Assembly: GCA_040005235.1 (NCBI GenBank)
Contig: JBDTZG010000014.1
Coordinates: forward strand, 1 to 64,000
Origin: Acidobacteriota bacterium
Lineage (GTDB): Bacteria; Acidobacteriota; Thermoanaerobaculia; Multivoradales; UBA5704
Length of the DNA stretch: 64,000 bases
Reading direction: 5' to 3'
Shown here: piece by piece, positions 20,025-57,300 of the stretch
Numbering within the stretch: position 1 is the stretch's first letter
Layout: each line of letters starts with the position of its first letter
The notes under the pieces: generated by a model
Told to the model about the DNA's origin: nothing
The model's database searches: none
The model's input: the letters and a program-made list of their open reading frames with translations, nothing else
Program-made: the position numbers and the translations under genes

Positions 20025-20042
20025 AGGCCAAGAGCTCGATCC

Positions 20043-22448: not shown

Positions 22449-22695
22449 ACGGGCTCCCTCCTGGAGAACGATCGAGACTAAGCGGACCCACGCAAGCAAC
22501 GCAGATGCTCGACTCGCGTATTCCATCTTATCCTATCACCTGCCATGGACGCCAAGCGGATCTACGCATACTTGTTTCTTCGGGGTTCGTTGTCCCGATT
22601 CTGAGCCAAAGTGCACTACCTCAAGTTAGCGCTCTTCAGCAAGCGCAGGGGAGGATATCGTTCAAGATACTTGCAATGCAGATGGGAGGAGTTGC
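22449..22695. promoter_or_regulatory. Divergent intergenic region, probable promoters for the permease and the lipopeptide operon
   Basis: Lower-GC gap of about 250 bp between divergently oriented genes, with an RBS at each end. No -35/-10 pair could be assigned confidently. Confidence 0.45.
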
Positions 22696-31182: not shown

Positions 31183-32109
31183 ATGGAAAGTAAAAGGACG
31201 ATTTGGGCCAAAGTTCGGCCGGTGTGTCTCTTGGCCTTGCTTTTGTCGCCTTCGGCAGCCGTTGCGGATGATGGTGCGCGTTTCGTCGGTTTCTGGAAAG
31301 GGGCGATCATCTTCGAAAAAGGTGCCATCGAAGGAGACATGGTCGCCGAATTCATTGCCAACCCCGGGGGAAAGCTCGTCGGCCTTTGCTCTTTGCCGGT
31401 TCACGGTGTGACCGACAAGCCTCTCGTCGACATCAAATGGAACCGCGATGAGATTTCTTTCGTGTACAAAGATGATACCGGAACATCTCTGGTGACGCTC
31501 GCTCTTTCCGCTGATGGCAAGCGCTTGAGCGGAAAAATGCAGGAGAAAGATAAGAGCTATCCCATCTACCTCAAGAGGACGAGTGAGGAGGAGCTGACCG
31601 CCAAGGGCTCGCTGGAGGTGCTCTCCGCCGACAACCGAGAGCTGAGGGAGCGGTTCGACAAGGATGCGGGAAAGGTTCGATTGGTCGTCCTGCTCTCGCC
31701 AACGTGCTCGGTCTGCATTCGGATGGCGCGGATGATCCAGCGCTACCTTCTGGAGGAGGTTGACGATCCGCGCCTGGCGGTCTACGTCGTTTGGGGACCG
31801 ATGCTGGAAGGTGACAACCAGGAGGTGGCGAAGACCATGCTGACGCACCTCACGGATCGGCGGGCGGTGCATTACTGGACGGCGAACGCCGATCTTGCCA
31901 AGTTGTTCAGCGAGCCTCTCAAGGCAGAGTCTCCGGCGTGGGACGTCCTCTTTTTCTTCGGCTCGGGTGCCCGTTGGACGAACTCTCCGCAACCCGCGGA
32001 CTACGCACACCAGCAGGGCAAGAGCCTTCCTCTGGACCATCAGTTCAACGGTGAGAAGCTGGTCGCCCAGGTGCGCAAGCTCCTGCCCGCCCAGCAGGCT
32101 CCAAAGTAG
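31183..32109 (+). CDS. Exported protein with a C-terminal thioredoxin-like CxxC domain
   Basis: Strong RBS; Sec-type signal (basic N-region, CLLALLLSPSAAVA); N-terminal beta-rich domain; RLVVLLSPTCSVC...VYVVWGPML...AWDV. Confidence 0.75.
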   Translation: MESKRTIWAKVRPVCLLALLLSPSAAVADDGARFVGFWKGAIIFEKGAIEGDMVAEFIANPGGKLVGLCSLPVHGVTDKPLVDIKWNRDEISFVYKDDTGTSLVTLALSADGKRLSGKMQEKDKSYPIYLKRTSEEELTAKGSLEVLSADNRELRERFDKDAGKVRLVVLLSPTCSVCIRMARMIQRYLLEEVDDPRLAVYVVWGPMLEGDNQEVAKTMLTHLTDRRAVHYWTANADLAKLFSEPLKAESPAWDVLFFFGSGARWTNSPQPADYAHQQGKSLPLDHQFNGEKLVAQVRKLLPAQQAPK

Positions 32110-41100: not shown

Positions 41101-44100
41101 CGGAGCTGACGGCCGAGCGTTTCGGGCCGGATCCCTTCGCCGCAGTGCCGGGAGCACGCCTTTACCGGACCGGTGATTTCTGCCGGCTGCGCGCCGACGG
41201 GGAGTTGGAATACCTCGGCCGCCTCGATCACCAGGTCAAGGTACGCGGTTTCCGCATCGAGCCCGGGGAGGTCGAAGCGGCGCTCCTCGCCTGCCACGGT
41301 GTACGCGAAGCGGTCGTCAGGGTCGGAGAGAACAGCACTCTGGTCGCCTGGGTCGCCGCCGATTCCCAGGACGCTCCGCTCGCCCCATCGCTGCGTCTAA
41401 TCCTGGGCGAGAAACTACCGCCCCATATGGTTCCCTCGGTCTTCGTCGAGCTCAAAGCGCTGCCGCGGACGCCCAATGGCAAGGTGGACCGGCAGGCCCT
41501 CCCGAATCCGGCGGAGGAGGGAGTGGCGAATGAGTCCGCGGGGCTCCACAGGTCGCCGATCGAAGAGGTTGTCGCGACGCTGTGGGCGGAGGTGCTCGGC
41601 GGTCGGTTGGCCGGGAGGGAGGAGAGCTTTTTCGAGATCGGCGGCCACTCGCTGCTGGCGGCACAGGTGGTGGCGCGAGTCCGCGTGACGTTCGGCGTGG
41701 AGCTCCCAGTACGAGCGCTTTTCGAAAGTCCGACGGTGGCTGGGCTGGCGACGGCGATTGAGCGAGGGCTAAGGGAAGAAAACGGCGTCGAAGTTCCGCC
41801 GATCGTGCGGGGAATGGCGGCGCCGGACCTACCGGCTCCCCTGTCCTTTGCCCAGGAACGTCTCTGGTTTCTCGATCAGCTGGCGCCGGGCGACCCGGCC
41901 TACAACATCACGCAGGCGATCCAAATGGTTGGCAAGCTTTATCCTTCTCTGCTGGAGCGGAGTCTGGCGGAGGTGGTTCGCCGGCACGAGACCCTGCGCA
42001 GCCGATTTTCCTTCCTGGACGGCGAGCCGGTCTCGGTCCTCGTTCCGGATTCGCGGTTCGCGCTTTCGGAGGTGGATCTTTCCCGGCTGCCGTCGACGAT
42101 CCGGCAGGAGGAGGCCGGCGCGTTGGCGCGTCGCGAGGCGCTGCGCGGATTCGACCTCGGCAGCGGACCGCTGGTCCGAGCCATCTTGCTGCGTCTCGAG
42201 GCCGAAGCCTTGCTGGCTCTCTTCGGTTTCCACCACATCGTCGGCGATGGCTGGTCCATGGGATTGATGGTCCGCGAGATCGGGGCGCTCTACGCCGCCT
42301 TTTGCCGCGGAAAAGGATCGCCGTTGACGGCTCTGCCGCTGAGCTATCGGGACTATGCGGCTTGGCAGCGGGAATGGCTGCGCGGGGAGGTGCTGGAGCG
42401 CGAGATCGCCGTTTGGCGAAGCCGCCTGAGCGGCGCTCCCGCGGTACTGGAGCTACCTGCGGATCGCCTTCGTGGCATTGCGGCCGGCTCCCGAGGAGCG
42501 GCGCTCCCGTTCGTATTGGACGCCAAGGTCGGCGCGAGCCTTGCCGGCCTCGGGCGACGGGAAGGAGCGACGCTGTTCATGGCGCTCCTGGCCGGCTTTC
42601 AGACGCTGCTTGCCCGCTACACCGGGGAGACCCGGATTCCGGTAGGCGTACCGGTGGCCGGTCGCCATCAAGTCGAGACCGAAGAGCTGATCGGGCTCTT
42701 CGTCAATACCCTCGTCCACTGCGGCAACCTCGACGAAGCCCCCACGTTCAGCGAGCTCCTCCAACGGGTCCGGAACGAAGCCCTGGAGGCGTGGGCGCAC
42801 CAGCACCTGCCGTTCGAAAAACTTGTCAGCGCGCTCCAGCCCGAGAGGAACCTGGGCAGTACGCCGTTGTTCCAGGTTCTGTTCGCGCTGCAGAACGCCC
42901 CTCTCCCCGAATTGGCGCTTCCCGGCCTGAGCGTGGAGCTCGTCGAAATACCTCGCGAATCCACCAAGTTCGATTTGAGTTTGGTGCTTGCCGAACGGCG
43001 CGGTGAGATCGTGGGTTGGGTGGAATACAGCACCGACCTCTTCGACCGCGTGCGAATCGAACGATTGGCCGGGCATCTGCGCACGCTGTATCAGGCGGTT
43101 GGTTTGGATGCGGGCAGGTCGGTGTCCGATCTTCCCTTGCTCGCTCCGGCGGAACGATCGCAGCTCGTCGACGAGTGGAACAACACCGGCGCGCCGGCCG
43201 GAGCGGACGGTCTACTGCATGCCCTGTTTGAAGATCAGGTTGCGCGGACACCGGAGGCCGTAGCTCTTGTATCCGGGCAGGAACGGCTCACCTATTCCGA
43301 CCTCGACGGACGAGCCGATCGTCTAGCGTCCTGGCTGCGGCGCCACGCCGTCGGCCCCGAGACCCGAGTTGCTGTTCTCCTCGAGCGAACGGTGGAGATG
43401 GTCGCAGCTCTCCTGGCGATCTTGAAAGCCGGCGGCGCTTACGTGCCTCTCGATCCGAGCTATCCGGATGAGCGGTTGGCAATGATGGCGGAGGATTCCG
43501 GGTTTACTGCGGTGGTCACCCAAAGCTCTCTGGTGACGCGGCTCCCGAGGTCGGTCGCCGATCTTCCCGTCGCCCGAATCGATGCCGACCGTGAGGAGAT
43601 CGACCGTGAATCGGGGCGGAATCGCATCTCCACCGTCGTGCCGCGGAATCTGGCTTACGTGATCTTCACCTCCGGCTCTACCGGCCGTCCGAAGGGGGTG
43701 GCCATCGAGCACCGCAGCGCGGTGGCGATGGTGCATTGGGCGCGCGGCGTTTTCTCCGCCGGTGAGCTCGAGGGTGTTCTGGCTTCGACCTCGATTTCTT
43801 TTGACCTTTCGGTGTTCGAAATCTTCGCCACCCTTTCCTGGGGAGGCAAGGTGGTCTTGGCGGGCAACGTCTTGGACCTGCCGCTTCTACCGGCCGCCGC
43901 CGAGGTTCGCCTGATCAATACCGTTCCTTCCGCCATTTCCGAGCTGCTTGCCGGCGGTGGCCTGCCGAAGTCGGTTCGCACGGTCAATCTCGCGGGAGAG
44001 GAGCTGCCTCTGCCTTTGGTCGACCGCCTTTTCGCCGCCGGCGTCGAGCGGGTCTATAACTTGTACGGGCCTTCCGAGGATACGACCTACTCCACCTTCG

Positions 44101-47100
44101 CCGGGATGACCCCGGGCTCCTCCCAAGCACCCGCAATCGGGCGACCGATCATCGGCACGCAGAGCTACCTGCTGGATTCCGGCCTGCAGCCGGCTCCGCT
44201 GGGGGTTCTGGGCGAATTGTTCCTCGGTGGAGCGGGGCTTGCCCGGGGATATCTCGGGCGGCCGGACCTTACGGCTGCCCGCTTCCTGCCGGATCCTTTC
44301 GGATCGACGGCCGGCGGTCGGCTCTACCGTACCGGAGACCTCTGTGCCTACCGTGCCAACGGCAAACTTGAGTTCCGGGGGCGTACCGATCATCAGACCA
44401 AAATTCGTGGTTTCCGGATCGAGCTCGGCGAGATCGAATCGGTACTGCTGGCCCAGAGGGGCGTTCACGATTCCGTAGTAGTGGCCCGCGAGCACCCGGC
44501 CGGCGGCAAGCAACTGGTGGCGTATGTCGTCCTGAACCCGGAGGATGAGACCAGAGGCACAGCCGCGATGGACCGGCTTCGCCATTCGATCGAACGTTTC
44601 CTGCCGGCTCACATGGTGCCTTCTGCCTTCGTCAGCCTGCCACAGTTGCCGCGCACCCCGAACGGAAAGGTGAATCGCTCGGCACTTCCCATGCCCGAGC
44701 GAGGCTCGGCCGCCCGCGCATTCACGAAGCCCGCTTCGGCGGCTGAAGAGAGCATGACGCGGCTGTGGGCTGACTTGCTCAAGATTTCGCCGGTGGGAAC
44801 CGAGGCCGACTTTTTCGATCTGGGAGGCCACTCGCTTCTCGCGGCGCGTCTGGTCCATAGGATTCGCGACGCCTTCGGCGTGGCCCTCCCCCTGCGGGCG
44901 GTGTTCGAAGCCCCGGTGCTCGCCGACCTCGTCGTGCAGGTCGAAGCGCTGCGCGGGCAAGGTGGGAAGGGGCCGGCCGTTCGCCTGCGGCAGCGAGATC
45001 GGGAGGGGACGGCCCCTCTCACTTTTGCCCAAGAGCGGCTTTGGTTCCTCGAACGATTCGATCAGGGGCGCTCCGCTTTGAACCTGCCGGTGGACCTGGA
45101 GATCCGCGGTTCGCTCCATTTCGTCGCCTTGAAGCGGAGCTTGTCGGAAGTGGTGCGTCGCCATGAAGTGCTGCGATCGGTGTTCCTGAATGTCGAGGGG
45201 AGCGGGTGTCAGAGAGTCATGGCTCCGGCGCCTCTGCTGTTGCCCCGGGTCGACCTGAAGGGATTGGCGCCGGACTTTCGCCAGGACGAGTGCTCCCGTC
45301 TGGTCTCCGGCGAGGCGCTACGGCCCTTCAATCTGGAAAAGGGTCCGCCGTTGCGCGCCCTGCTCGTTTCACTCGGCGGTCGGCTGCAAGTCTTGGGACT
45401 CACGCTTCACCATATCGTCGCCGACGGATGGTCCATCGGCACGCTGGTGCACGAGATGTCGGAGCTCTACCAGGCGTTTTCATCGGGCCGCGCCCTGCAG
45501 CTCCCCGAGTTGGCGGTGCAGTACGCGAGCTTTGCCGAGTGGCAGCGCTCCGAGGAATCCGCCGAGCTTTTTGGCCGACAGCTCGCTTATTGGCGAGAAC
45601 GCCTTGGCGGGGCACCCCCGAGCGTCGACCTTCCGACGGACCGTTTGCGGCCTTCGGTCCAGACCTATCGCGGCGCGCGTTGCACTCTGGTCTTGGAGCG
45701 CGAGCTCGCCGAGGGGCTCATTGCGGTCGGTCAGGCGCGCCATGCGACCTTGTTCATGACCCTGCTCGCGGCGTGGAAGGTACTCCTTTTTCGTTTCAGC
45801 GGTCAGACCGACCTGGTTGTCGGGACTCCTTTTGCCGGCCGCGTCAGCGTCGATCTGGAAGGGCTGATCGGCCTGTTCCTCAACTCGCTCGCTCTGCGCA
45901 CCGACCTGTCGGGCAACCCTTCATTCAGCGAGCTTTTGGATCGGGTGCGCGAGACGGCTCTGGGTGCTTACGCCAACGAGGACGTTCCCTTTGAGAAGGT
46001 CCTTGCGGAGCTGCGGCCGGAGCGCGATCTGAGCCGCACTCCGATCTTCCAAATCTTGTTCAACATGCTCAATTTTGAGGTGGCGGAGGTTCGCCTGCCC
46101 GATTTGGAGTTGCGCCTTCTCGCGACGCCGGAGCTGCCTTCGAAATTCGATCTTACGGTTTACGCCGCGGAGCGACCGGAAGGGATTCTGCTCACCCTGG
46201 TCTACAACGCGGACCTCTTCGACGGCCCCCGGATGACCGAGGCTCTGCGGCAGTTCCGGCTCCTCCTTTGCGGCATCGTCGCCGACCCGCAGATGCGGAT
46301 CGATCGGTTTTCGCTGGTTAGCCAGGACGCAGCGGCGATTCTGCCGGATCCCCGGGCCACTCTGGACGCCACCTGGTACGGTCCGGTACACCAGGTCTTC
46401 AGCCGCCGGGCCGCAGACGTTCCGGATGCCGCGGCGATCCTCGATCCGCAGGGCACGATGAGCTACGGCGAGCTCGATCGGCGCAGCAACCGTTTGGCAC
46501 GTTCCCTGGTCGAGGGCGGCCTCCGGACCGGCGACGCGGTGGCCGTCTACGCCCATCGTAGCTCGCCGATCGTGTGCGCGGTCCTGGCCATCATGAAGGC
46601 CGGTGGAGCGTTCGTAATTCTGGATCCGGCTTACCCGGCGCAGCGCATCATCGAGCTCATCGAAGTGGCCCAACCGCGCGCTTGGATGGAAATGACGGCC
46701 GCCGGCAACTTGGCGCCGGAGCTCGAGGAATATGTCTCCGCGAGATCCTGGTGTCCGAGGGTGCGGCTTCCCCCGGTGCGGGATACGACGCTCGCATGGG
46801 AGCAAGCATCGTCCGAGCCGCTACGGATCGAGGTGGGAAAAGACGACGTTGCCTATGTCGCCTTCACCTCGGGTTCTACCGGAATCCCCAAGGGTGTGCA
46901 GGGACGCCATGGTTCTTTGTCTCACTTCGTGCCTTGGCAGCAAAGCCACTTCGGCCTGGACGCTTCCGATCGGTTCTGCATGCTTTCGGGGATCGCTCAC
47001 GATCCTCTACAGCGGGACATTTTCACGCCGCTGCAAATCGGAGCTTCGATCGTCATTCCGGATCCCGGCGAAATGCTTGCTTCCGGCCGGCTTGCGGAGT

Positions 47101-48293
47101 GGCTGCAGCGCGAAGGAGTAACCGTCGCCCATCTCACCCCGGCCATGGGGCAGGTGATTGTCCAGGCAAAGGCGGGGACCGTTTTGGTTTCCTTGCGGTA
47201 CTCGTTTCTGGTGGGTGACGTGTTGACCCGCCGAGACGCCGCACGGTTGCAGCACCTGGCCCCCCGGATGACCTGTGTCAACTACTTTGGCTCGACCGAG
47301 ACCCAGCGTGCGGTGGGCTTTCACGTCGTTCCAAACGTGGTGGAAGCGAGCCTTGCGGGGGAAGTGAGCCAAGAGGTACTGCCTCTTGGGAGAGGTATCC
47401 GGGACGTTCAACTCCTCGTGTTGAACGCCAACGACCAACTCGCGGGAATCAGCGAAGTCGGCGAGATCTGTGTGCGAAGTCCGCATCTGGCACGCGGCTA
47501 CCTGGGCGATTCCGAGCTGACTTCGCGCAAGTTCGTCCCCAACCCTTTCACCGGTGCGTCCGAAGACCGCCTCTACCGCACCGGCGATCACGGCCGCTAT
47601 CTGGCGGACGGAGAAGTTGGGTTCCTCGGTCGGGCCGATCAGCAGGTCAAGGTTCGAGGTTTCCGGGTCGAGCTCGGCGAGATCCAGGCGGTCCTTGGGC
47701 GTCACTCCGGAGTCCGCGACGTAGTGGTGCTGCCGTGGAAGGACGGAACAGGGGCGACAAGATTGGCAGCCTACGCGGTGCCGAACCCGGGTGTCGATCT
47801 CGATACCGGCGAGCTGCGGAGCTTTCTCCAGGACCGCTTGGCGGCGTACATGGTCCCCTCGGTCTTCCTGATTCTCGACCGCCTGCCGATGACCCCCAAT
47901 GGCAAGCTCGACCGGCGCTCGCTTCCCGATCCTCTCACCGCACGACGTGGTGAGCAGGAGTATGTCCAACCGAGGACCCAAGTCGAGATGACGATCGCCG
48001 ACATCTGGCGCAAGGTACTCGAGGTGGACAAGATCAGCGCTTTCGACAATTTCTTCGACCTTGGTGGTCACTCGTTGTTGCTTCTCCAGGCCCATAGCGA
48101 GCTGGAGAAGCGGCTGAGACTTCAGATCGCGGTGGTTGACCTTTTCAGGTACCCCACGGTCAACGCGCTGGCCAAGGCCTTGACCCAGGACCCGGGTCCT
48201 CCGGACGAAACGCAACTCGATCGACGCGATCGAGCCACCCGCAGGTGGCAAGGGATCGAAGAACGCAAGAAAGGGCTAAGGCGGCAAAGATGA
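32151..48293 (+). CDS. Five-module NRPS (C-A-PCP)x5: Ala-like, Asp, Ala, Ala, aminoadipate/Glu-like
   Basis: Five HHxxxD C domains of LCL appearance (PLSFAQERLWFL type) and five GGHSL PCPs. Codes read as DLFSNALTYK, DLTKIGHVGK, DLFNNALTYK, DLFNNALTYK, DPRHFVYRAK. No E domains. Exact start codon uncertain (weak RBS). Confidence 0.94.
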   Translation: MVASHTNLVSRLSADQLRRIARQLREKGGAVGTDSLARLPRDQGGFPLSFAQERLWFLDQLEPGSISYNVGVKVRFRGRLDIAALRESLSRIAGRHEALRTCFRSVDGKSQQEIRPVEPVAVPLVDLAGFSAARSGAEAEALSLGGARTPFDLTRGPLLRATLLRVAEQEHLLVLVLHHIVCDGWSAGILVREFALLYAGRVEGREAALAELSVQYADFAVWQRLQVTQGAWAEQLAYWQGQLNGLPPLILRTDLQRPSISDGNGERHVLEFKPGTAEAVSELGRRAQATPFMVLWSVFSVLLARLAGQDDFGVATPVVGRSRPELQSLIGFFADTLVLRTSLSGNPTFGELLNLNREIVAAAFANQSMPFALLVKELAPDRVLGTTPLAQVMFSLEDRLSISSFAGLSVSLEEIDNRTAKFDLMLTLRFGANGLSGHLEYPTDLFEPVTVARIAAQLALLLETATTVPSVPVFDLPLLGAGERHQVVTEWNDNSRSAEARTVPDLLAAQAARAPDSTAVIHGLERFSYGELRARAHRLAGLLRQRGVGPEVRVGVCLERSFELVIALVAVLEAGGAYVPLDPTYPRERLSYILADSGAALVVTSEESVACLPTDGAVAVCLIRAAGDWRTAEEPMEISGYTPRALPESLAYLIYTSGSTGRPKGVGIEHRHAATFLTWARRAFLSSEIAGVLASTSVCFDLSVFELFVPLAWGGSVILADNVLNLLALPASTEITLVSSVPSAVAELVASGLPPGVRTVNLAGEALPRSLVDQLFAQPGVRRVLNLYGPSEDTTYSTMAVMRREDGRIPAIGRPIAETRAYVLDALLRPLPLGIPGELALSSRSLARGYLGRPELTAEKFVPDSLSGIPGERMYRTGDLVRWRADGELEFFGRADHQVKIRGFRIEMGEIEAALLEVPGIDEAVVEVFEAAGGDRRLAGFYVMRQVGSEVDDLPERLQARLPAYMVPASLLQIAALPRTANGKVDRRALPKPQWGSVNVGAAAPRSVVEQMLADIWCEALGVDRVGREDRFFDLGGHSLLATRVVSRVRSVLGIDIPVRAIFEARDLSALAARIEATVALAGGDSPEPPVPPLASLPRPEMVPLSFAQQRLWLIDQLRPGGATYNVPYALRAVGRLDIAALTRAFSEIARRHEGLRTRFAATENGEPAQWISPPLPVPLPLVDLSFLKDAGACAETVATAEARRPFDLVRGPLLRLCLLRLAKEEHLLLLNFHHIVMDGWSLGVLIGELAALYEAFVQGRPSPLPDLTIQYADFSLWQRQWLAGGALERQLFFWRSRLVGSRTLDLQTDRPRTGATGLRGGAQSVALPSDLVQAVQTQGRSLGATPFVVLLTAFAALLSRLSGHEDLCVAVPVAGRRRIETEPLIGYFVNTLVLRMDFSEGPMFLDAIGRIRRVVLEADAHQDLPFERLVEELQPERSLEQPPLAQVMFALQHLPPAPPSMPGLRLEGREVETGSAKFDLSLSLLTSSTTIEGRLGYDAELFLPATTIRFLRQYQVLLVAALRHPERQVADLPLLSEGERLQLVVDWNESGEALFAPPEALPLQIAARAAWTPDAPAVVFEGRSLTFGELNLRANQLAHFLLRRGAGSEKPVALLLERSEQVVIGMLGILKSGAPYIPLDPSLPPERLGAILVDSGARALVSTSRLSHRLPSTGLEGIQRVQLDSDASPIAAESTGEPSVRILRESLAYVIFTSGSTGRPKGVAVEHRQLAAYVRGVELRFGLAECASFALVSTFAADLGHTVVFPALVAGACLYVVSQERSGDADAFGDYFEQHSIDCLKIVPSHLAALLAGSRPQRALPRRKLILGGEASTWAEIDRIHLLAPGCRVYNHYGPTETTVGAVAFTASAGPREVERGFLRVPLGRPLPGSRVFVLDRQHQLVPVGVPGELWIGGVGVARGYVGRPDLTAERFFPDVWSGASGARIYRTGDLTRRLPGGDLEFLGRVDLQVKIRGFRVEPQEVAAHLARHPEVREALVIAQSGDAGAQLVAYFVSIEELDADTLRAYLAASLPDYMLPTAFVRIAAIPLTPNGKVDRTALPPPNPAAPEPQTSAPRTPTEELLAVLWAQVLSRDRVGVFEDFFRLGGHSLLATRLVARARQTFGLDLPLRSLFEAPTIAALATRIDELRRVGGPAPPPPIVRWNAGGEVPLSFAQERLWFLDQLEPGSPAYSLPYFARIRGSVSPAILAGVLRFLTRRHESLRTRFPAIAGRPFQQIVPESSLPLPQVDLAGLPSVVREEKLEHLLRAAAMRPWNLATGPLVRASLIRLGDGDQVFALSLHHIVSDAWSRGVLTREMATLYVAVLQAEPPSLASLPLRYSDFAHWQRKWLDGENLDSEVAWWCARLDGIPPLQLPLDRPRHKVRSGQGCVQSAPLPRGFEGRVEELAKRLGATPFMVLLSIYATQLHRYTGSDRIVVGAPIANRNRTEIEGLIGCFVNTLALPVRFGVALSFEGLVAQMRETSLGAYDHQDLPFEKLVEAMIGERDLHRPPLASVAFLYQTEPIASLDFAGLVWQPLDLHNGSAKFDLALAFTGTEGERRATLEYDRDLLDAATVVRMIGHFGRLADAALERPELALVALPLLTAAEVAELTAWNRTGRTYPSGLCLHQLFEAQAGRTPDAEALIWGHERTTYRELDRRADQVAWELRRLGVGPEARVGVLLERTSKLVVGLLGILKAGAAYVPLDPAYPTERLAWTANDAGIVAALVDLGAQDAGSPARSERLAAIFSPSMPLLGLPPASAARNGFHSEASTAGPGNLAYLIYTSGSTGRPKAVAIEHRSAVVLMRWAREVFTAEELSGVLGATSISFDLSVFELFAPLSWGGKVVLADSALSLPHLPAAAEVKLVNTVPSAMTELLRLAAVPSGARTVNLAGESLPRSLADRLYGTGHVVRVLNLYGPSEDTTYSTWSLVAADDVRAPNVGRPVPETQAWVLDAHLGLLPKGVPGELYLGGGGLARGYLGRPELTAERFGPDPFAAVPGARLYRTGDFCRLRADGELEYLGRLDHQVKVRGFRIEPGEVEAALLACHGVREAVVRVGENSTLVAWVAADSQDAPLAPSLRLILGEKLPPHMVPSVFVELKALPRTPNGKVDRQALPNPAEEGVANESAGLHRSPIEEVVATLWAEVLGGRLAGREESFFEIGGHSLLAAQVVARVRVTFGVELPVRALFESPTVAGLATAIERGLREENGVEVPPIVRGMAAPDLPAPLSFAQERLWFLDQLAPGDPAYNITQAIQMVGKLYPSLLERSLAEVVRRHETLRSRFSFLDGEPVSVLVPDSRFALSEVDLSRLPSTIRQEEAGALARREALRGFDLGSGPLVRAILLRLEAEALLALFGFHHIVGDGWSMGLMVREIGALYAAFCRGKGSPLTALPLSYRDYAAWQREWLRGEVLEREIAVWRSRLSGAPAVLELPADRLRGIAAGSRGAALPFVLDAKVGASLAGLGRREGATLFMALLAGFQTLLARYTGETRIPVGVPVAGRHQVETEELIGLFVNTLVHCGNLDEAPTFSELLQRVRNEALEAWAHQHLPFEKLVSALQPERNLGSTPLFQVLFALQNAPLPELALPGLSVELVEIPRESTKFDLSLVLAERRGEIVGWVEYSTDLFDRVRIERLAGHLRTLYQAVGLDAGRSVSDLPLLAPAERSQLVDEWNNTGAPAGADGLLHALFEDQVARTPEAVALVSGQERLTYSDLDGRADRLASWLRRHAVGPETRVAVLLERTVEMVAALLAILKAGGAYVPLDPSYPDERLAMMAEDSGFTAVVTQSSLVTRLPRSVADLPVARIDADREEIDRESGRNRISTVVPRNLAYVIFTSGSTGRPKGVAIEHRSAVAMVHWARGVFSAGELEGVLASTSISFDLSVFEIFATLSWGGKVVLAGNVLDLPLLPAAAEVRLINTVPSAISELLAGGGLPKSVRTVNLAGEELPLPLVDRLFAAGVERVYNLYGPSEDTTYSTFAGMTPGSSQAPAIGRPIIGTQSYLLDSGLQPAPLGVLGELFLGGAGLARGYLGRPDLTAARFLPDPFGSTAGGRLYRTGDLCAYRANGKLEFRGRTDHQTKIRGFRIELGEIESVLLAQRGVHDSVVVAREHPAGGKQLVAYVVLNPEDETRGTAAMDRLRHSIERFLPAHMVPSAFVSLPQLPRTPNGKVNRSALPMPERGSAARAFTKPASAAEESMTRLWADLLKISPVGTEADFFDLGGHSLLAARLVHRIRDAFGVALPLRAVFEAPVLADLVVQVEALRGQGGKGPAVRLRQRDREGTAPLTFAQERLWFLERFDQGRSALNLPVDLEIRGSLHFVALKRSLSEVVRRHEVLRSVFLNVEGSGCQRVMAPAPLLLPRVDLKGLAPDFRQDECSRLVSGEALRPFNLEKGPPLRALLVSLGGRLQVLGLTLHHIVADGWSIGTLVHEMSELYQAFSSGRALQLPELAVQYASFAEWQRSEESAELFGRQLAYWRERLGGAPPSVDLPTDRLRPSVQTYRGARCTLVLERELAEGLIAVGQARHATLFMTLLAAWKVLLFRFSGQTDLVVGTPFAGRVSVDLEGLIGLFLNSLALRTDLSGNPSFSELLDRVRETALGAYANEDVPFEKVLAELRPERDLSRTPIFQILFNMLNFEVAEVRLPDLELRLLATPELPSKFDLTVYAAERPEGILLTLVYNADLFDGPRMTEALRQFRLLLCGIVADPQMRIDRFSLVSQDAAAILPDPRATLDATWYGPVHQVFSRRAADVPDAAAILDPQGTMSYGELDRRSNRLARSLVEGGLRTGDAVAVYAHRSSPIVCAVLAIMKAGGAFVILDPAYPAQRIIELIEVAQPRAWMEMTAAGNLAPELEEYVSARSWCPRVRLPPVRDTTLAWEQASSEPLRIEVGKDDVAYVAFTSGSTGIPKGVQGRHGSLSHFVPWQQSHFGLDASDRFCMLSGIAHDPLQRDIFTPLQIGASIVIPDPGEMLASGRLAEWLQREGVTVAHLTPAMGQVIVQAKAGTVLVSLRYSFLVGDVLTRRDAARLQHLAPRMTCVNYFGSTETQRAVGFHVVPNVVEASLAGEVSQEVLPLGRGIRDVQLLVLNANDQLAGISEVGEICVRSPHLARGYLGDSELTSRKFVPNPFTGASEDRLYRTGDHGRYLADGEVGFLGRADQQVKVRGFRVELGEIQAVLGRHSGVRDVVVLPWKDGTGATRLAAYAVPNPGVDLDTGELRSFLQDRLAAYMVPSVFLILDRLPMTPNGKLDRRSLPDPLTARRGEQEYVQPRTQVEMTIADIWRKVLEVDKISAFDNFFDLGGHSLLLLQAHSELEKRLRLQIAVVDLFRYPTVNALAKALTQDPGPPDETQLDRRDRATRRWQGIEERKKGLRRQR
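46385..47930 (+). other. Lys2 (alpha-aminoadipate reductase)-like adenylation domain
   Basis: PKGVQGRHGSL, MLSGIAHDPLQRDIFTPL, HLTPAMGQ, FLVGDVLTRRD, GSTETQRAV and GRGIRDVQLLVLN follow the diagnostic fungal Lys2 motifs as I recall them. Confidence 0.85.
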
Positions 48294-48308
48294 AGAAGGA
48301 GCTCGTTC

Positions 48309-51300
48309 GTGGCTGAAACGGCGGTCGAGAAGGGAATTGCGATCATCGGCCTAGATGGCCGCTTCCCGGGTGCTCGAAACGCAGAAGAGTTGTGGCAGAA
48401 CCTCTGCGAAGGTGTCGAATCGCTCTCCCGGTTCTCACAGGAAGAGCTGCGCGCGTCGAGCCCTGACGGGACGCGCCTGGAGGATCCGCGGTTGGTACCT
48501 GTTCGCGGTGTTCTTTCCGAGGTCGAGCTTTTCGACGCCGGCTTTTTCGGGATAAGTCCACGCGAGGCGGCCGCGACCGATCCGCAGCAGCGTGTCTTCA
48601 TCGAATGCGCCTGGACCGCGTTGGAGGACGCCGGCTACGACCCGGGCAACTGCGGAGGCCTTGTCGGCGTTTACGCAGGCTCCGCGCTCAGCTCCTACGC
48701 CTGGAACAACCTGGGCTCGGACCCGGAGCTCCTGGCATCGCTGGGAGCCCTCCAGCTCGGCATTTTGAACGGCAAGGACCACCTGCCGACCCGAGTTTCC
48801 TACCTTTTGAATCTCACCGGTCCGAGCGTTGCGGTGCAGACGGCCTGCTCGACGTCCTTGGTGGCCGTACACATGGCCTGCCTTGCCTTGCTCAACTACG
48901 AGTGCGACATGGCGCTGGCGGGAGGCGTCAGCATCGCGGTGCCGCAAAAGGCAGGCTATCTGTTCGAAGAGGGGGGAATCTTGTCGCCGGACGGGCACTG
49001 TCGCGCTTTCGACGCCGCTGCCCATGGCACGGTGATGGGCGATGGCGTCGGCATCGTGGTGCTCAAGCGTCTCGATGAGGCAATGGCGGACGGCGACCGT
49101 ATTCGCGGGGTGATCCTCGGTTCGGCAATCAACAATGACGGCGGAGGAAAGGTTGGCTACACCGCTCCGGGTTTGGAGGGTCAGGCGGAGGTCATCGCGG
49201 CGGCCCATGCGGTGGCGGGGATCGACGCAGGAACGATCAGCTATGTGGAGACGCACGGCACCGGCACCCCTTTGGGCGATCCGGTGGAGATTTCGGCCCT
49301 GACTCGCGCCTTCCGAATGAGCACGGACCGTATCGGTTCCTGTTCTATCGGTTCGCTCAAGACCAATATCGGGCACCTCAACACGGCGGCAGGTGTCGCC
49401 GGCTTGATCAAAGCGGTCCTTGCCCTCGAGCACAAGGCGATCCCACCGAGTTTGCACTTCGAGCGGCCCAATCCACGGATCCATTTTGACGACAGCCCCT
49501 TCTTCGTCAACACGCGTTTGACGGAATGGTCGGCCGACGGCGCGCCGCTCCGCGCGGGTGTCAGTTCGTTCGGCATTGGCGGAACCAACGCCCACGTCGT
49601 TCTTGAGGAAGCTCCGGTGCCGGAGGTGTCCGATGACGCGCGGCGCTGGCAATTGTTGGTGATCTCGGCCAAAACCGAGTCCGCCCTTGAAGCGGCGGCC
49701 CAGAACTTGGCGGAGCACCTCGGCCGGCACCCTGACTTGAAGCTCGCGGACGCTGCCTTCACGTTGCAAGTCGGACGCAACCGCATGGAGCATCGCCAGA
49801 TCTTGGTCTGCCGCGATGCCGCGGAAGCGATCCGCGAGCTGACGGCCGGCGAGGACTCGCGGGCCGTGCGGCTGCACGAAGCGGCTCGGGAGCGGCCGGT
49901 GGTTTTCCTCTTCCCGGGGCAAGGTTCACAGTACGTCGGCATGGGACGCGAGCTCTTCGAGCTCGAGCCTCTCTTTAGAGAGCAGGTTGATCTCTGCGCC
50001 TCTCATCTTTTGCCGCACTTGGGATTCGACATTCGAACGCTCTTCGAGAGCTCAACCGAGGAGTCGCGGGCAGCGGAGGAGCGGCTTCAGGAAACCGCGG
50101 TAGCGCAACCGGCTCTGTTTGTCGTCGAATACTGCCTTGCCCGCCTGTTTGCCGAGTGGGGCATCGAGCCGGAGGCGATGATCGGGCATTCGATCGGGGA
50201 GTACGTCGCCGCCTGTCTTTCCGGGGTCATGAGCCTTCCTGACGCCCTACGTCTGGTGGCGGCCCGGGGTCGCCTCATGGGGGAGTTACCACCCGGCGGG
50301 ATGACCGCGGTTCACCTTTCTGAAGCCCAGGTTAGACATCTTCTACCTGCGGATTTGGAGATCGCGGCGGTCAATGGGCCGACGCTAGTCGTGGTGGCGG
50401 GAACCCTTACCGCCGTGGCGGCTTTTGAAGAAAAGCTGGCTGAGGACGGTGTCGAGCATCGACGGCTCAAGACCTCTCACGCTTTCCACTCCGCGATGAT
50501 GGAGCCGATCTTGGAGCCCTTCGCCCGCGTGGTGGCCTCGATCGCGTTGCACGAACCGCAGCGGACCTTCATTTCAAATCTGACCGGACGACCGGCGACC
50601 GCCTCCGAAGTTACGGACCCCAACTATTGGGTCCGCCACTTGCGCGACGAAGTACGTTTCTCCGACGGTGTCGACGAGATATTCCGCGATCCAGGGCGGG
50701 TCTTCCTTGAGATCGGGCCAGGCCGAGCGCTGACCACGATCGTCCGGCAGAATCCTGGCGCGCAGGCCGGGATGACAATCCCCACCATGCGCCCGCAGTC
50801 TCGGGAAGGGTCGGACTTGGCTTGGGCGCTGGAGGCCCTGGGTCGCGCCTGGCTCGCGGGGGTGGCGATCGATTGGCGCGGTTTCCACCACCGCCATCGC
50901 CGCTTGCGGGTGGCGATGCCTGGTTATCCGTTCGAACGGCAACTGCATTGGATCGAGGCGCGTCCTCTCCGACCGTCCGGACCTCTCTCCGCAATTCCGG
51001 CAAGGAGCGCGGACCCCGCGGGCTGGTTCCATGCCCGGACTTGGCGGCGATCGGCAGGACAGGGCTCAGCCGCGACCGAACCGGGCGCCCTCCTACTGTG
51101 GGCCGCGCCCGGCGGTTTGGGCGGTGAAATCCACCGTGAGCTCACCTCGCGCGGCGTTGCGGTGGTGCTCGCCGAGCTTTCGGGCAGTCTGGAGCCTAGT
51201 TCCTTAACCGCCAGCCTTGCGGAAGAGGTCGCCCCACGACGTATCGCTCTGTTGGTGGAGCGTTGTACGCCGGGGCCGGAAGCAGCCGGGGCGCTCGCCC

Positions 51301-54300
51301 TCCTACTCTCCTCCCTGGCCTCTCGTCCGGAAGGTCGCGATGATTCGCCGGAGCTGATCCTGGTCACCGAATGCGCCGAAGAGGTGGTTGGCAGCGAAGT
51401 GACGAACGCGGTCCCTAACGACACCCTCGCCACCTTGATGGCAGAGGCCGCTCGGATGCCCGGTCTCCGCTGGCGCTGCGTGGACGTTGATGTCGAAGGA
51501 GAAAGCCCGCGGAGCGACAAGCTCGTCGACGAGTTGCTCGCGCCGGGACCGGCCGGCGTGGGGTCTGTGGTGGCCCTTCGAAACGGCTATCGATGGCTGC
51601 CGGCTTACGAGGTGGTTCACTTGGAGCATCGCGCGGGAGCCATTCGGCCCGGCGGTGGTTATCTGGTGGTGGGCCAGATAGGGGTGGCAAGCCAGTCCGT
51701 GCTCGCCGCGTTCGCGGAGGCGGGCGCACAGGCGCAGCTCATCCCGGCCGATCCGGCCGTAATCCTCGCATCTCCGGCGTTTGCATCCAATCTGCACGGA
51801 ATCGTCGTCACGGGCGGTTGGGAGACTCCTGCAGACACTCTCGCGGCGCTCGACGTCGCCCTCGGCGGTCGCGCGCTGGATTTCCGGCTCGTCCTCGCCC
51901 CATTCGCTGCTGGGCAGGAGATCGAAATTGGCGAAACCGTCGCCGAACGGCGGCTTGCCGCAGCGGTTCGCGTCCGTGCCCAAGCCGGTGGTGTCCGCTG
52001 GCGGATCGCCTCCTGGCGGATCACCTCGAGATCGGGTGATGACCAGGGGCTGACCCCGGGGGAGGCCGCGGAAGCCTTCCTGAGGCTCATCACGTGGCAG
52101 GGAGAGGCTCACCTCGTCGTGGCGCCCGTCGACCCTTCGGTTGCGGTACCCGTCGCCGAACCGCTCTCGTTCGCGGCAGAGCTTAAGCCAACAGGCAAGG
52201 GCGGGTATGTGGCGCCGCGCAACGCGGTAGAACGCGATTTGGCTGCGATCTGGGAGCACTTCCTGGGGATCGCTGCCGTGGGCGTTTTCGACAGTTTTCT
52301 CGAGCTCGGCGGACACTCCTTGCTGGCGACGCGCGTGACTGCGCGGATGCGCGAGGTCTTCGGGGTCGAACTGCCGCTCAGCAGCCTCTTCGAGAGCCCC
52401 CACTTGGCCGCGCTGGCCGTCGAAATCGGTGCGCGCCGAGAATCTCTGGGTGAGCCGTCGTCTGCTGCGCAGAGTCCGGCTTTTCACGCGATTGCCGCCC
52501 CGGCGGATCGTTATGATCCGTTTCCCCTTACCGAGGTGCAGCAAGCTTACTGGATCGGGCGTAGCGCCGGATTTGAGCTGGGGAATGTGGCAGCGCACAG
52601 CTACCTTGAGGCGGAGACTCGGAATCTCGATCTCTCGCGGCTTGAGGCGGCGCTCGATCGGCTCGTAAACCGCCACGAAATGTTGCGGGCGGTCGTAACA
52701 CGCGATGGTCAGCAGCGAATTTTGGCTGAGGTTCCGACTTATCGCATTGAAGTCGATGATCTTCGGGGTATGGCCCCAGAGGCTGCGGAAGCGGTCCTCA
52801 AGGAGACGCGAGCTCGCCTGGCGCAAGAGGTCGTACCGACCGACCGCTGGCCGCTTTTCGCCGTGCGCGCCTCGCTCCTGGATTCGGGCGCAACTCGCCT
52901 GCACATCCGACTCGATTACCTGATCGCCGACGCTTGGAGCGCTCGGACTTTGGCACGCGATGTCGGAGCTTTCTACGCCGATCCGACGATTTTCCTGCCG
53001 AACCTCGAGGTCTCGTTCCGAGATTATGTCCTTTGGCTGGAATCCCTGCGCGAAACCGAAGAGCATCGACGAGCCCTCGCCTACTGGCAGGGACGGCTGG
53101 AAAATCTTCCTCCGGCACCGGATCTACCTCTCGCGGTGAGTCCAACCACCCTGCTGAAGCCGCGCTTCGAGCGTCGGCGCGCCGCCCTGCCGGCCTTCCA
53201 TTGGGGGGAGCTCAAGCGCCGCTTCGCACAGGCGGACCTCGCGCCTTCCGCAGCGCTGGCGGCGGTATTTGCAGAGATTCTCACCGGTTGGAGCAAGAGT
53301 CCTCGTTTCACCATCAATCTGACGCTGTTCAATCGTCGGCCGGTGCATGCCCAAGTTGGGGAGTTGGTCGGCGATTTTACCTCTCTCACCTTGTTGGCGG
53401 TGGAGAGCGAACCAGGCGGCGGATTCCTGTCACGAGCCCGCGCCTTACAGCGGCAACTGTGGCGGGACCTTGACCACCAATCGGTGAGCGCCGTTCAGGT
53501 GTTACGCGACCTTTCCCGAGAACGCGGCGAGCTGGCGCGAGGATCGATGCCGGTCGTCTTTACCAGCACTTTGAGCATGACCACCGGCACTTCCGCGGCT
53601 GAGACGGAGGCGAGCGTTGCCGACCCTGTCCAGGTGGTCTACAGCCTCAACCAGGGACCGCAGGTCTGGATCGACCATCAGGTCTCGGAGCGTCAAGGGG
53701 AGCTCGTTTTCAATTGGGATGTCGTGGAGGGCCTTTTCCCACCGGGGCTGATCGACGCGATGTTCGAGGCCTATCGTGCGCTTTTGGAGACGCTCGCCCA
53801 GGCCGATGAAGCTTGGGGGGTTGTCCCGTTGCCCTTGGTGTCAACCGCCCAGCTCGAACAGCGTGCTGCGGTAAATGCCACCGAGGCACCCGTCACCGAC
53901 GATCTCCTTCACACCTTGTTCCGCGCGCAGGCAGCCCGTCGGCCCGAGGCGACGGCGGTAGTCGCCGGAGATCGCCGATTGACCTATGGCGAGCTCGCCG
54001 CACGTGCCGGCTGGCTAGGCCGTCGGCTGCGAGATTTGGGAGCACGGCCCAACACGCTGATTGCGGTGGCGATGGAAAAGGGTTGGGAACAGGTGGCTGC
54101 GGTGCTCGGCGTGCTCGAGGCCGGTGCCGCCTATCTGCCGGTCGATCCGTCGCTGCCCTCCGACCGGCTGGGATATCTGCTCGCCCATGGTGAGGTTCGA
54201 ATCGCCCTCACGCAGTCCTGGCTGGAACATCGTCTCGACTGGCCACCCGGAATCGTGCGCATCTGCGTCGACCGTGAGCCCGCGAAAGAGGGACTCGAAC

Positions 54301-57300
54301 CGCTGGAGATTTCCCAGGCACCCGGCGACTTGGCCTACGTTCTCTACACCTCCGGATCGACCGGCTTGCCCAAGGGCGTAATGATCGACCACCGCGGCGC
54401 CGTGAACACTATTCTCGACGTCAATCGCCGCTTTGCGCTGGGCCCCAACGACGCAGTTCTCGCCGTGTCATCCTTGAGCTTCGATCTTTCGGTCTTTGAC
54501 ATCTTTGGTCTCCTCGCCGCAGGAGGCAAGGTGATCGTGCCGGAGCCCGGGACCAGCCGGGATGCCGAACGATGGGTGGAGCTTCTGCACCGCGAAGGCG
54601 TGACGCTGTGGAATACGGTGCCTGCGCTCTTTGAGATGCTGGTGGAGCACGTGTCGGGTCGGCCGGATCTCCTACCGCCGCCCCTTCGGTTTGCGTTGCT
54701 CTCCGGCGACTGGATTCCTCTGTCGCTTCCCGATCGCGCCCGTCAGGCTCTTCCGGGTATCGAGGTGGTCAGCCTGGGAGGTGCCACGGAAGCGTCGATC
54801 TGGTCCATTCTCTATCCCGTCGCCGAAGTTGCGGGCGATTGGAAAAGCATCCCGTACGGCCGGCCGATGCTCAATCAGTCCTTTTCTGTCCTCGACGGCC
54901 AGCTCGAGGCGCGGCCGGTGTGGGTTCCGGGGCAACTGTACATCGGCGGTATCGGTCTGGCGCTCGGCTACTGGCGCGACGAGGAAAGGACGAGAGCCAG
55001 CTTCATCCGTCATCCACGCACCGGCGAACGCCTGTACCGCACCGGCGATCTCGGTCGATACCTGCCCGATGCAACGATCGAGTTCCTGGGGCGCGAGGAC
55101 TTCCAGGTCAAGATCCATGGCTATCGCATCGAGCTTGGAGAGATCGAGGCCACTCTTTCTCAACACCCGGCGGTGCGCGAATGCGTGGTCGCCGCGCCGG
55201 GCTCACCACAAGGTGCCCGCCGTTTGGTGGCCTACGTGGTTCCAGGCTCCGACCCTGTCGCTGTGAAGAGCGCGAAGACCGAGTCGGCACAGGTGGCGCA
55301 GTGGCAGGCGCTGTTCGACGCCACGTACGGTGCGTCAACCGGTAGAGAGGCCACCTTCGACATCGCCGGGTGGAAAAGTAGCTATGGCGGCGATATACCG
55401 CCGGAGGAGATGCAGCGCTGGGTTTCTTCCACCGTGGAGCGCATTCTGGCCCTGCGGCCCCGGCGCGTACTGGAGATCGGCTGCGGTACGGGCCTGCTTC
55501 TGTTTCGGATCGCCCCTTTCTGCGAGCATTACCGAGGCACCGATCTTTCGGCGGAGGCCCTGGCGTCGATCCATCGCCAGATCGCGGCAGCGGGTATCAA
55601 GCTGCCCCAAATACAGCTTGCTCAATCCGCTGCGGACGACTTCACCGGCGTCGCGTCCGGCGAATTTGATTTGGTGATCATCAACTCGGTCATTCAGTAT
55701 TTCCCGGATGTTGGATATCTGCTTCGGGTGGTCGAGGGAGCGGCAGGAGTTGTCTCACCCGGCGGCCATATCTTCGTGGGCGATGTACGTGACTTGACGA
55801 CGCTTCCCGCCTTTTACGCCTCCATCGAGCAGGCGCTGTCACTGGTCGACCTCGGACAGGAAGAGCTGCGGCGAAGGATCGAGCAGCGTACGGCGAAGGA
55901 AGAGGAATTGGTGGTCAGCCCCGATTTCTTCAGGGCACTTGCAGACCGGCTGCCGGCGGTTCAGGGTGCGGTGATGGAGCCGAAGCGCGGGCGCGACCGC
56001 AATGAGTTGGTCAACTATCGGTACGACGTGACGCTCTTGATCGACCCTCCGGCCGCGCCTCGCCAAGTCCGCTGGCAGGACTGGCAGGACGTCGGCGGAA
56101 CCCTTGCCGCTCTGTGCGACCGGTGGCGCGCCTCAGAAGGCGAGCCGATAGGCGTTCGCGGCATACCGAGCTCACGGCTCACCGGGGATCTCGCCCGGTG
56201 GGCCGATCCCGCACGAGGACCGGACGGATCATCGGCCGGGGCCGTCGAAGCTGTCGATCCGGAAGATTTGTTCCATCTTGGCCAGGAGCTCCGTTGCGGT
56301 ACGACCTTGACCGTTTGCGGCGCGGACCGCCCCGGTGCTCTCGATCTCGTCCTTTGGCCCCTCACAGCATTGGACTCGTCGACGCCTTTTTGGCTCCCGG
56401 CCGAACCGCATTTCGGAGAGCCGAGGTGGAAGTTCTGGGCCAACGATCCATCGAGGCCGCAGCTGGCACATACCTTGGTTCCAAAGCTGACCGCCTTCCT
56501 GCGCGAAAAGTTGCCCGACTACATGGTGCCGGGCGTTTTCGTGATCCTCGACGGTTTACCGCTCACCGCCAATGGCAAGGTTGACCGCAGCGCCTTGCCC
56601 GCGCCCGGCATCGATCCCGAGGCTGCGCCCGGACTCCACGTCGCTCCGCGAACGCCCACCGAGCAAGCGGTGGCGGAAATCTGGTCTCAGGTGCTGCGCG
56701 CGGAGCGGGTGGGTGTCGAGGACAACTTCTTCGACCTGGGAGGCCATTCGCTCCTCGCGATCCAGGTGCTTTCTCGACTGCGTCAGCAACTGAAAGTCGA
56801 AGTTCCGGTTCAAACCCTTTTCGAGTCCGCAACGGTCGCCGGTCTGTCGAGAGAGATCGACGTTCTCCTGCAGCGATCGATTCCGGAAGACGGCGCGCGT
56901 CTCCAGCCTGTATCGCGCGATCAACGACTGCCGCTTTCCTTCTCACAAAAGCGGCTTTGGTTTCTCGATCGCTTAGTTCCGGGGAATGCTTTCTACAACA
57001 TTCCAGCGGGCGTTCGAATGAAAGGAAAAGCGGACCTACGGTCTCTCGCCGCGGCGATCAACGAGATCGTCCGCCGCCATGAAACCCTGCGAACGACGTT
57101 TGCCGAAGCGGATGGCGAACCCTTCCAGGTGATCGCACCGGGGATTCACGTGGCGGTGCCTCACGTCGATCTGCGGAATCTGTCCGATGCAGCAGGAGAG
57201 GCGGAGATCGTGCGCCTGATGAACGAGGAGGCAAAACGCCCGTTCGACCTCGCGGCCGGACCCATGCTGCGCGCCTTCACCCTCTGGCGGGCGGAGAACG

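Follow-up and report, generated by a model that had tools for sequence, protein, structure and literature searches.

What is an adenylation domain of the kind found in fungal Lys2 doing inside a bacterial assembly line, and which carboxyl group of its amino acid would it activate? This question is raised by a nonribosomal peptide synthetase (NRPS) encoded in the genome of an Acidobacteriota bacterium (assembly GCA_040005235.1). We analysed a window of 64,000 nucleotides (nt) at the start of contig JBDTZG010000014.1 (here C132), whose 106 kb are filled almost entirely by NRPS and polyketide synthase (PKS) genes. The gene at 32151-48293 (plus strand) encodes a protein of 5380 amino acids (aa) with five modules, each consisting of a condensation (C), an adenylation (A) and a carrier (T) domain, and module 5, the subject of this study, stands at its end. 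Its A domain, A5, resembles that of Lys2, which reduces the delta-carboxyl of alpha-aminoadipate (Aad) (PMC7884236). A first-pass annotation of this DNA had proposed that module 5 joins Aad or Glu through the side-chain carboxyl, and that the chain is then extended by a PKS and coupled to a Cys heterocycle.

The likeness of A5 to Lys2 is apparent from motifs, profile scores and phylogeny. The four motifs on which the first-pass annotation had relied, HDPLQRDIFTPL (nt 46998), HLTPAMGQ (47130), VGDVLTRRD (47211) and TETQRAV (47295), all lie in frame in A5, and the intact C domain and the specificity code reported with them were found in frame in the same gene. We read the ten-residue codes from two MAFFT alignments, both of which gave DPRHFVYRAK for A5, at positions that we take to follow the numbering of GrsA-PheA. 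As a control on the extraction, other domains gave DFWNIGMVHK, which is the code printed for Thr in the zeamine paper (PMC3547906). The other four A domains of the gene carry DLFSNALTYK, DLTKIGHVGK and, twice, DLFNNALTYK, which bears out the earlier remark that A5 is unlike all of its sisters.

The best NCBIfam match of A5 is the Lys2 equivalog TIGR03443 (505 bits, model positions 267-751), with which two of its sister domains reach 139 and 208 bits. The 127-aa pocket stretch of A5 scores 169.7 bits with the Lys2 model versus 76.7 bits with a generic A-domain model, and for an ordinary A domain from this gene the pocket region gave no match to the Lys2 model. When half of the C domain is included, A5 reaches 555.4 bits (model positions 2-751), which is under the family cut-off of 1030.1 bits. 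A search with the pocket region among 1.84 billion protein representatives returned one protein of Lys2 type, P0333 (1425 aa), which passes this cut-off with 1410.7 bits. It consists of a half Condensation domain (ADA-like), an A domain, a carrier and an NAD_binding_4 reductase, with the pocket match where it is expected for Lys2. P0333 has the motifs SGIAHDPIQRDIFTPL, HLTPAMGQ and TTETQRAV, and its code (DPRHFVMRAK) equals that of A5 at nine of the ten positions. The two A domains are 44.8% identical, compared to 37.1% between A5 and its sister A1.

In a FastTree phylogeny of 379 A domains, A5, P0333 (the single Lys2-type sequence in the tree) and 206 others form one clade of 208 tips with a support of 1.0. 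A grouping of A5 with ordinary A domains, which had been named beforehand as the outcome that would speak against a Lys2-like domain, was not seen, as the 171 ordinary A domains drawn from the same proteins lie outside this clade. Both A5 and P0333 fit the signature of the clade, D-P-R-H at positions 235/236/239/278 and R/Q-A at 330/331 (DPRH type), and the exact code of A5 recurs in 36 other domains of the sample. Judged by its sequence, A5 is truly Lys2-like, as had been claimed.

Other searches returned more distant material. The PDB search was without a close solved relative of A5. Linear gramicidin synthase A came up there as a seemingly close, Gly-activating relative with 490 bits, and was rejected because two ordinary A domains add up to this value (236 + 252 bits). 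The ESM Atlas search with A5 gave generic AMP-binding clusters only, and tblastn against plasmids gave 13 records at 38–43% identity.

Our database searches further indicate that A5 is not a fungal oddity but a member of a large bacterial clade, which is routine in elongation and termination modules. Searches with the whole of A5 and with its pocket region each listed 120 matches, all of them bacterial NRPSs, and most of the best 120 matches to A5 are a DPRH-type domain in a normal multimodular NRPS. Among their sources are Thermoanaerobaculia, Longimicrobium, Pyrinomonadaceae, Chloroflexota, cyanobacteria, Binatia and Bradyrhizobium. In 204 fetched proteins and the NRPSs of this genome we counted 201 DPRH modules, of which 188 have a C domain upstream. 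Their carrier is followed by the end of the protein (72), a C domain (60), a thioesterase (TE; 57), a heterocyclisation (Cy) domain (5), a ketosynthase (KS; 3) or an unclassed region (4). When one genome per species was scanned, both clade motifs occurred together in at least 599 stretches, and the best 80 of these all belong to metagenome-assembled Acidobacteriota, Longimicrobium and Herpetosiphonaceae. Within the phylum of the window the distribution is patchy, with matches at E 1e-30 in 3 of the 301 sampled genomes, this genome included. Hence, the picture of a singular fungal domain in a bacterium overstated the uniqueness of A5. Bacterial sequences sister to fungal aminoadipate reductases had indeed been noted earlier by Bushley and Turgeon (PMC2823734).

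This genome alone holds three DPRH domains: A5, one on contig C118 (DPRHLVLRAK) and a truncated one at the end of contig C84. The latter (C84:12-932, minus strand; L003) forms the cut end of a 7176-aa open reading frame (ORF), has the motifs HDPLLRD and TETPQAM, and reads by eye as DPRHFGFQAK, a common type among the cyanobacterial matches. Elsewhere, three proteins (P0005, P0007 and P0010) are C-A-T-C-A-T-TE NRPSs in which both A domains are of DPRH type (DPRHLILRAK), and the Lys2-type P0333 is nearest to this group in the tree, with low support. Domains with a code of the VDWVVSLGDK type, which we take to be the bacterial beta-alanine code, adjoin DPRH domains in the same proteins.

The DPRH A domains are accompanied by a distinct type of C domain. 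The tree of C domains contains 178 that stand before a DPRH A domain, and 168 of them group in a single clade of 174 tips (support 0.987). Module 5 and the C118 module both contribute a C domain to this clade, while the 27 further C domains of this genome that the tree contains all lie elsewhere. A dual epimerisation/condensation (E/C) motif was found in none of the 178 C domains examined.

Module 5 itself is intact. Its Condensation domain is full length, covering 2-452 of the 456 profile positions, and carries HHIVADG at nt 45408; it is followed by matches to AMP-binding (E 1.3e-67), AMP-binding_C and PP-binding. The core motifs of an elongation module are all present, namely HHIVADG, FTSGSTGIPK, PMTPNGKLDR and FFDLGGHSL, which supply the C3 histidine, A3, A10 and the carrier serine. 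These features are best explained if module 5 works as an NRPS elongation module and represents a type of its own, with a dedicated C domain and a Lys2-type A domain.

The carrier of module 5 (T5) is not followed by a thioester reductase. The gene stops 111 nt past the carrier domain, and the next gene (48309-67310, 6333 aa), with a GTG start at 48309 only 15 nt past the preceding stop, opens with a KS. The hand-off from T5 to the KS is thus between two proteins. This hand-off recurs in related loci. In the 80 loci closest to module 5, a KS comes next after 33 of the 67 scorable DPRH modules versus 0 of the 71 scorable other A modules. The KS-linked loci stem from ~32 assemblies, as counted by accession prefix, and are related rather than independent events. 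The remaining DPRH modules are followed by C (25), TE (5), Cy (3) or A (1), with a further 12 not scorable. The corresponding numbers for the other A modules are 68, 1, 2 and 0, with 8 not scorable. In the C118 module of this genome, too, the carrier is followed by KS, acyltransferase (AT) and acyl carrier protein (ACP) domains. Moreover, two loci from other assemblies (L018 and L019) are colinear with window positions 40.9-53.4 kb, to which they are 78% and 70% identical in nucleotides, respectively; both show the same order of C-A*-T and KS-AT-gap-ACP-Cy, where the asterisk marks the DPRH type. Since C118, L018 and L019 all show the arrangement, it is conserved and no accident of assembly. 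We found no characterised pathway with a DPRH-type module directly before a KS, in agreement with the first-pass annotation, although codes printed in images or supplements would escape such a search.

The C118 module belongs to a second large cluster (C118:153341-206020; its start lies in L015), in which a stand-alone C-A(DPRHLVLRAK)-T protein is followed by KS-AT-ACP-C-A-T and further modules. The first C domain of this cluster sits in the DPRH-linked C clade and does not look like a separate starter type. Type I restriction-modification genes lie upstream.

The PKS module behind module 5 has the features of a type I elongation module. The KS (ketoacyl-synt, E 1.7e-73) retains its Cys-His-His residues, the AT (Acyl_transf_1) its GHSIG motif, and both are joined by an ACP. 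HAFH in the AT presumably denotes the malonyl-CoA type. The A domain behind the subsequent Cy domain has a Cys-like code, as would suit the Cys heterocycle that had been predicted as the partner of the ketide unit. The earlier description of a carrier followed by a KS-AT(malonyl) module without a reductase also holds, but the PKS module is not a bare KS-AT. Between AT and ACP lies a stretch of 457 aa that matches no Pfam family even at E 1. This stretch is homologous to the same region of three other loci, L055, L047 and L064 (phmmer E 8.5e-16, 1.1e-11 and 3.4e-18, respectively), which Pfam recognises as a ketoreductase (KR) domain in L047 and L055 (150–163 bits). According to the alignment, the NADPH-binding loop and the catalytic Ser-Tyr-Asn stretch have been deleted or replaced here, and likewise in L018 and L019. 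By homology, therefore, the stretch is the remnant of a dead KR. As a consequence, the beta-keto group is probably kept after ketide extension, unless a separate reductase acts. This is what the first-pass annotation had expected.

Table 1. Features of module 5 and of the PKS module that follows it (window positions).
Feature	Position	Strand	Evidence
Condensation domain of module 5	45003..46334	+	Pfam PF00668, E 1e-93; HHIVADG; in DPRH-linked C clade
A5, Lys2-type adenylation domain, code DPRHFVYRAK	46398..47906	+	Pfam AMP-binding and AMP-binding_C; TIGR03443; tree
Pocket stretch between A4 and A5 core motifs, with the quoted motifs and 9/10 code residues	46953..47333	+	Lys2 model, 169.7 bits
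Peptidyl carrier T5, FFDLGGHSL	47994..48182	+	Pfam PP-binding, E 1e-18
Ketosynthase (Cys, His, His present), start of next gene	48333..49463	+	Pfam PF00109, PF02801; TACSTS, ETHGTG, NIGHLN
Acyltransferase, GHSIG and HAFH	49902..50855	+	Pfam PF00698, E 8.9e-59
Degenerate KR remnant, 457 aa	50856..52226	+	phmmer homology to KR regions of other loci; alignment
Acyl carrier domain of PKS module	52236..52418	+	Pfam PP-binding, E 3.8e-12
Heterocyclisation (Cy) domain, DYLIADAWS	52509..53858	+	Motif, domain map; its A domain has code DLFNLSLIW-

From this architecture we infer the activated carboxyl, the substrate and the product as follows. A5 would adenylate the side-chain carboxyl of an acidic alpha-amino acid, which would be tethered to T5 by that carboxyl. 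The C domain would acylate the free alpha-amino group with the upstream lipopeptide. The chain would then run via the side chain, leaving the alpha-carboxylate free, and would be taken over in trans by the KS at the head of the following protein. One malonate extension would follow, the beta-keto group would stay in place given the dead KR, and the Cy module would join cysteine as a thiazoline. The assembly line opens (22696-24900) with a fatty-acyl-AMP-ligase-like domain, made up of AMP-binding and a DIP2-like C-terminal part, and an ACP; because of this start, the product is probably a lipopeptide. The scheme in its full form combines a distally tethered Aad or Glu, a PKS-made C-C bond that yields an undescribed amino-oxo-dicarboxylic unit with a free alpha-carboxylate, and a module type from the stock of fungal Lys2. 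That all of these elements hold together is a tentative proposal, with the odds against it.

The central element, activation of the distal carboxyl of an acidic alpha-amino acid, is in our view probable, by analogy with Lys2 and with zeamine synthesis. The loading domain A1 of the zeamine NRPS Zmn16 has the code DPRHLALLAK, for which Table 2 of the 2013 paper lists 2-aminoadipic acid as the NRPSpredictor result (PMC3547906), and the first residue of prezeamine is described as ‘gamma-aspartate’ on the basis of mass spectrometry and nuclear magnetic resonance (PMC5811116). Zeamine A1 thus provides one published bacterial precedent for the earlier claim that a DPRH code goes together with distal-carboxyl activation. 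Similarly, the PARAS paper describes two A domains that tether Asp via the side-chain carboxyl. As for the acid itself, we still rank Aad first, because Arg330 is common to A5 and the Lys2-type P0333 and is replaced by Leu in zeamine A1. Even so, Aad held by its distal carboxyl is a possible rather than a probable substrate, while Glu held in this way seems unlikely, and Asp slightly more so.

Several observations weigh against side-chain activation, or against Aad in particular. The sole characterised bacterial DPRH member in these sources, zeamine A1, carries Asp and not the predicted Aad, and is placed in the DPRH clade by its printed code. The pocket positions 299, 301, 322 and 330 vary among close relatives of A5, so the code may not fix the substrate. 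Asp235 and Lys517, the holders of an ordinary alpha-amino acid, are retained in A5. LysW was not found in this genome, which is rated 100% complete. The best matches to lysine 6-aminotransferase (LAT) and homocitrate synthase in this genome reach 145.7 and 173 bits versus cut-offs of 520.8 and 413 bits, respectively. DapA is present, and a single saccharopine-dehydrogenase-like match is weak (36.8 bits). The genome check that had been suggested thus gave no clear route of Aad supply in this genome, where piperideine-6-carboxylate (P6C) dehydrogenase and lysine 6-dehydrogenase were not searched for, and supply genes were not seen beside either the window cluster or the C118 cluster. The 2013 ‘Aad’ call for zeamine A1 proved to be Asp, and Aad, which the first-pass annotation had named beside Glu, is no more than the best guess for A5. 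An epimerisation (E) domain follows 0 of the 201 DPRH modules versus 3 of 177 other modules, counts that are too small to discriminate.

Some of these points would be explained if A5 were Lys2-like by descent only. It would then activate the alpha-carboxyl, maybe of an amino acid whose acidic side chain is held by Arg239, His278 and Arg330, and module 5 would give an ordinary gamma-amino-beta-keto unit. The retained Asp235 and Lys517 and the lack of detected supply genes fit this explanation, and so does the high frequency of the clade in plain C-A-T and C-A-T-TE modules, with a C domain before 188 of 201. In addition, no classical Glu code occurs among the A domains of this genome's clusters, and the clade could be a local ‘Glu’ domain. 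Yet the pocket agrees at nine of ten positions with that of an enzyme of Lys2 type, whose target is the distal carboxyl, and zeamine A1 gives a side-chain-linked residue. A different position of the acceptor amine would also account for the separate clade of C domains that accompanies the DPRH A domains. We therefore regard alpha-carboxyl activation as a rather unlikely explanation.

It is less likely again that the substrate is not an alpha-amino dicarboxylic acid at all, but an omega-amino acid such as beta-alanine or GABA (gamma-aminobutyric acid), or another carboxylic acid with a distant amine. The frequent hand-off to a KS would suit such a spacer-like unit, and the animal Lys2 relatives ACSF4-U26 and Ebony activate beta-alanine. 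However, the two arginines and the histidine in the pocket point to an anionic group on the substrate, and the role of beta-alanine seems to be taken by the VDWVVSLGDK-type domains in the same proteins, if we read that code correctly. Finally, module 5 might be skipped or inactive, with the Lys2-like domain as a relic. The decay of the adjoining KR demonstrates that domains do decay in this assembly line. Nevertheless, we consider a relic very improbable, because the core motifs HHIVADG, FTSGSTGIPK, PMTPNGKLDR and GGHSL are intact, the frame is open across 16 kb, the module is kept in the same order in the assemblies of L018 and L019, and its pocket code is common to the 36 other sampled domains mentioned above.

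If distal-carboxyl activation is true, a large group of uncultured bacteria would routinely build Aad, or some other acidic amino acid tethered via the side chain, into NRPS products. As late as 2021, ACV synthetase module 1 and the Lys2-type reductases were described as the only enzymes known to activate Aad (PMC7884236). The passage of such a thioester to a KS would represent a new backbone-building route, which would place a flexible keto-diacid spacer with a free carboxylate in lipopeptides. A full C-A-T module with a Lys2-clustered A domain would also offer a candidate ancestry for an enzyme of fungal primary metabolism. A practical implication concerns genome mining. Prediction tools label DPRH domains as ‘Aad’, the sole tested case is Asp, and hundreds of predicted clusters may be misread.

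The window contains several other features. A separate hybrid line (605-18391), cut by the contig start, has the order KS-AT-ACP-C-A-T-KS-AT-KR-ACP, followed by a gene with C, A (with an insert of ~420 aa), T and TE domains. Its G+C content is ~70%, versus ~64% in the second cluster, to which module 5 belongs. Two genes separate the clusters (18597-22526). One is a 475-aa ORF with a faint match to circularly permuted ATP-grasp (E 0.002); the other, on the minus strand, encodes a MacB/FtsX-type ABC permease. A 308-aa ORF (31183-32109, plus strand) fits tightly between two NRPS genes. It belongs to no Pfam or NCBIfam family, has a faint glutaredoxin-like match in the PDB (E 0.0014), and is overlapped by a 407-aa ORF on the opposite strand. 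Two A domains of the gene starting at 48309 (53900-57000 and 58300-61300) carry inserts of ~395 aa between core motifs; these contain VLEIGCGTGLLL, which by eye reads like an S-adenosylmethionine (SAM) methyltransferase. Beyond the window, later in the same line, a KS-AT-ACP-aminotransferase-C gene (C132:80135-86293; L011) represents a beta-amino-forming module type, which is known from mycosubtilin and microcystin synthesis. The last domain of the assembly line is a TE at C132:101407, behind which lies a carbamoyltransferase gene.

How does module 5 compare with known systems? With Lys2, as represented by P0333, it has in common the A clade, the nine code residues and the motifs SGIAHDP.QRD.FTPL, HLTPAMGQ and TETQRAV. 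Both also have a C-like stretch before the A domain, and TIGR03443 positions 2-266 align with the C-terminal half of the C domain of module 5. More generally, in the window (45591-46398) and in other NRPS modules of this genome, the first 266 positions of this model match ordinary C domains over their C-terminal half, in keeping with the published interpretation of ADA as a truncated C domain. The differences are equally clear. The C domain of module 5 is full length and catalytically intact, whereas the ADA domain of Lys2 is truncated, and module 5 is without a thioester reductase, passes its thioester from T5 to a KS, and is the fifth module of a very long bacterial hybrid line.

Iacovelli et al. 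(2021; PMC7884236) proposed that Lys2 and ACV synthetase module 1 descend from an elongation module, without giving an example. The DPRH C-A-T modules are a concrete candidate for such an ancestor of Lys2. In a C-domain tree, the Lys2 ADA stretch joins long-branched C domains within a clade of 179 tips (support 0.898), to which 168 DPRH-linked C domains belong, and on average it is 28.5% identical to DPRH-linked C domains versus 26.0% to other C domains; neither result assigns ADA to one kind or the other. The suggestion that A5 could be informative about the origin of Lys2 holds in this respect, but with a single Lys2-type sequence the position of P0333 within the DPRH clade has low support.

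Zeamine A1 resembles A5 in its setting in a bacterial NRPS-PKS hybrid, in its DPRH code, and in the acidic residue joined by its side chain in the product. The loading A domain of the fabclavine NRPS has been likened to it by a statement of the authors. In contrast to A5, zeamine A1 belongs to a loading module, so that nothing is condensed on the amine of its amino acid, and it is followed by a C domain and not by a KS. Ketide extension in zeamine comes after Val, unlike in module 5. The code of zeamine A1 differs from that of A5 at positions 299, 301, 322 and 330, the last being the Leu in place of Arg330.

ACV synthetase module 1, compared here by description only, likewise joins Aad via the delta-carboxyl. 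This module, preceded by a truncated C-like domain, serves for initiation, however, and its code (EPRNIVEFVK) falls outside the DPRH type. The Glu module of McyE and NdaA has the code DPRHSGVVGK and incorporates D-Glu via the gamma-carboxyl in an elongation C-A-T module of a PKS-NRPS hybrid. There the polyketide precedes the amino acid, and the distal carboxyl ends up in an amide rather than in a C-C bond, unlike the proposed course in module 5. What is new in the present system is an A domain of the Lys2 and zeamine A1 type in an elongation module coupled to a KS, an as yet uncharacterised arrangement that is widespread in uncultured (soil) bacteria.

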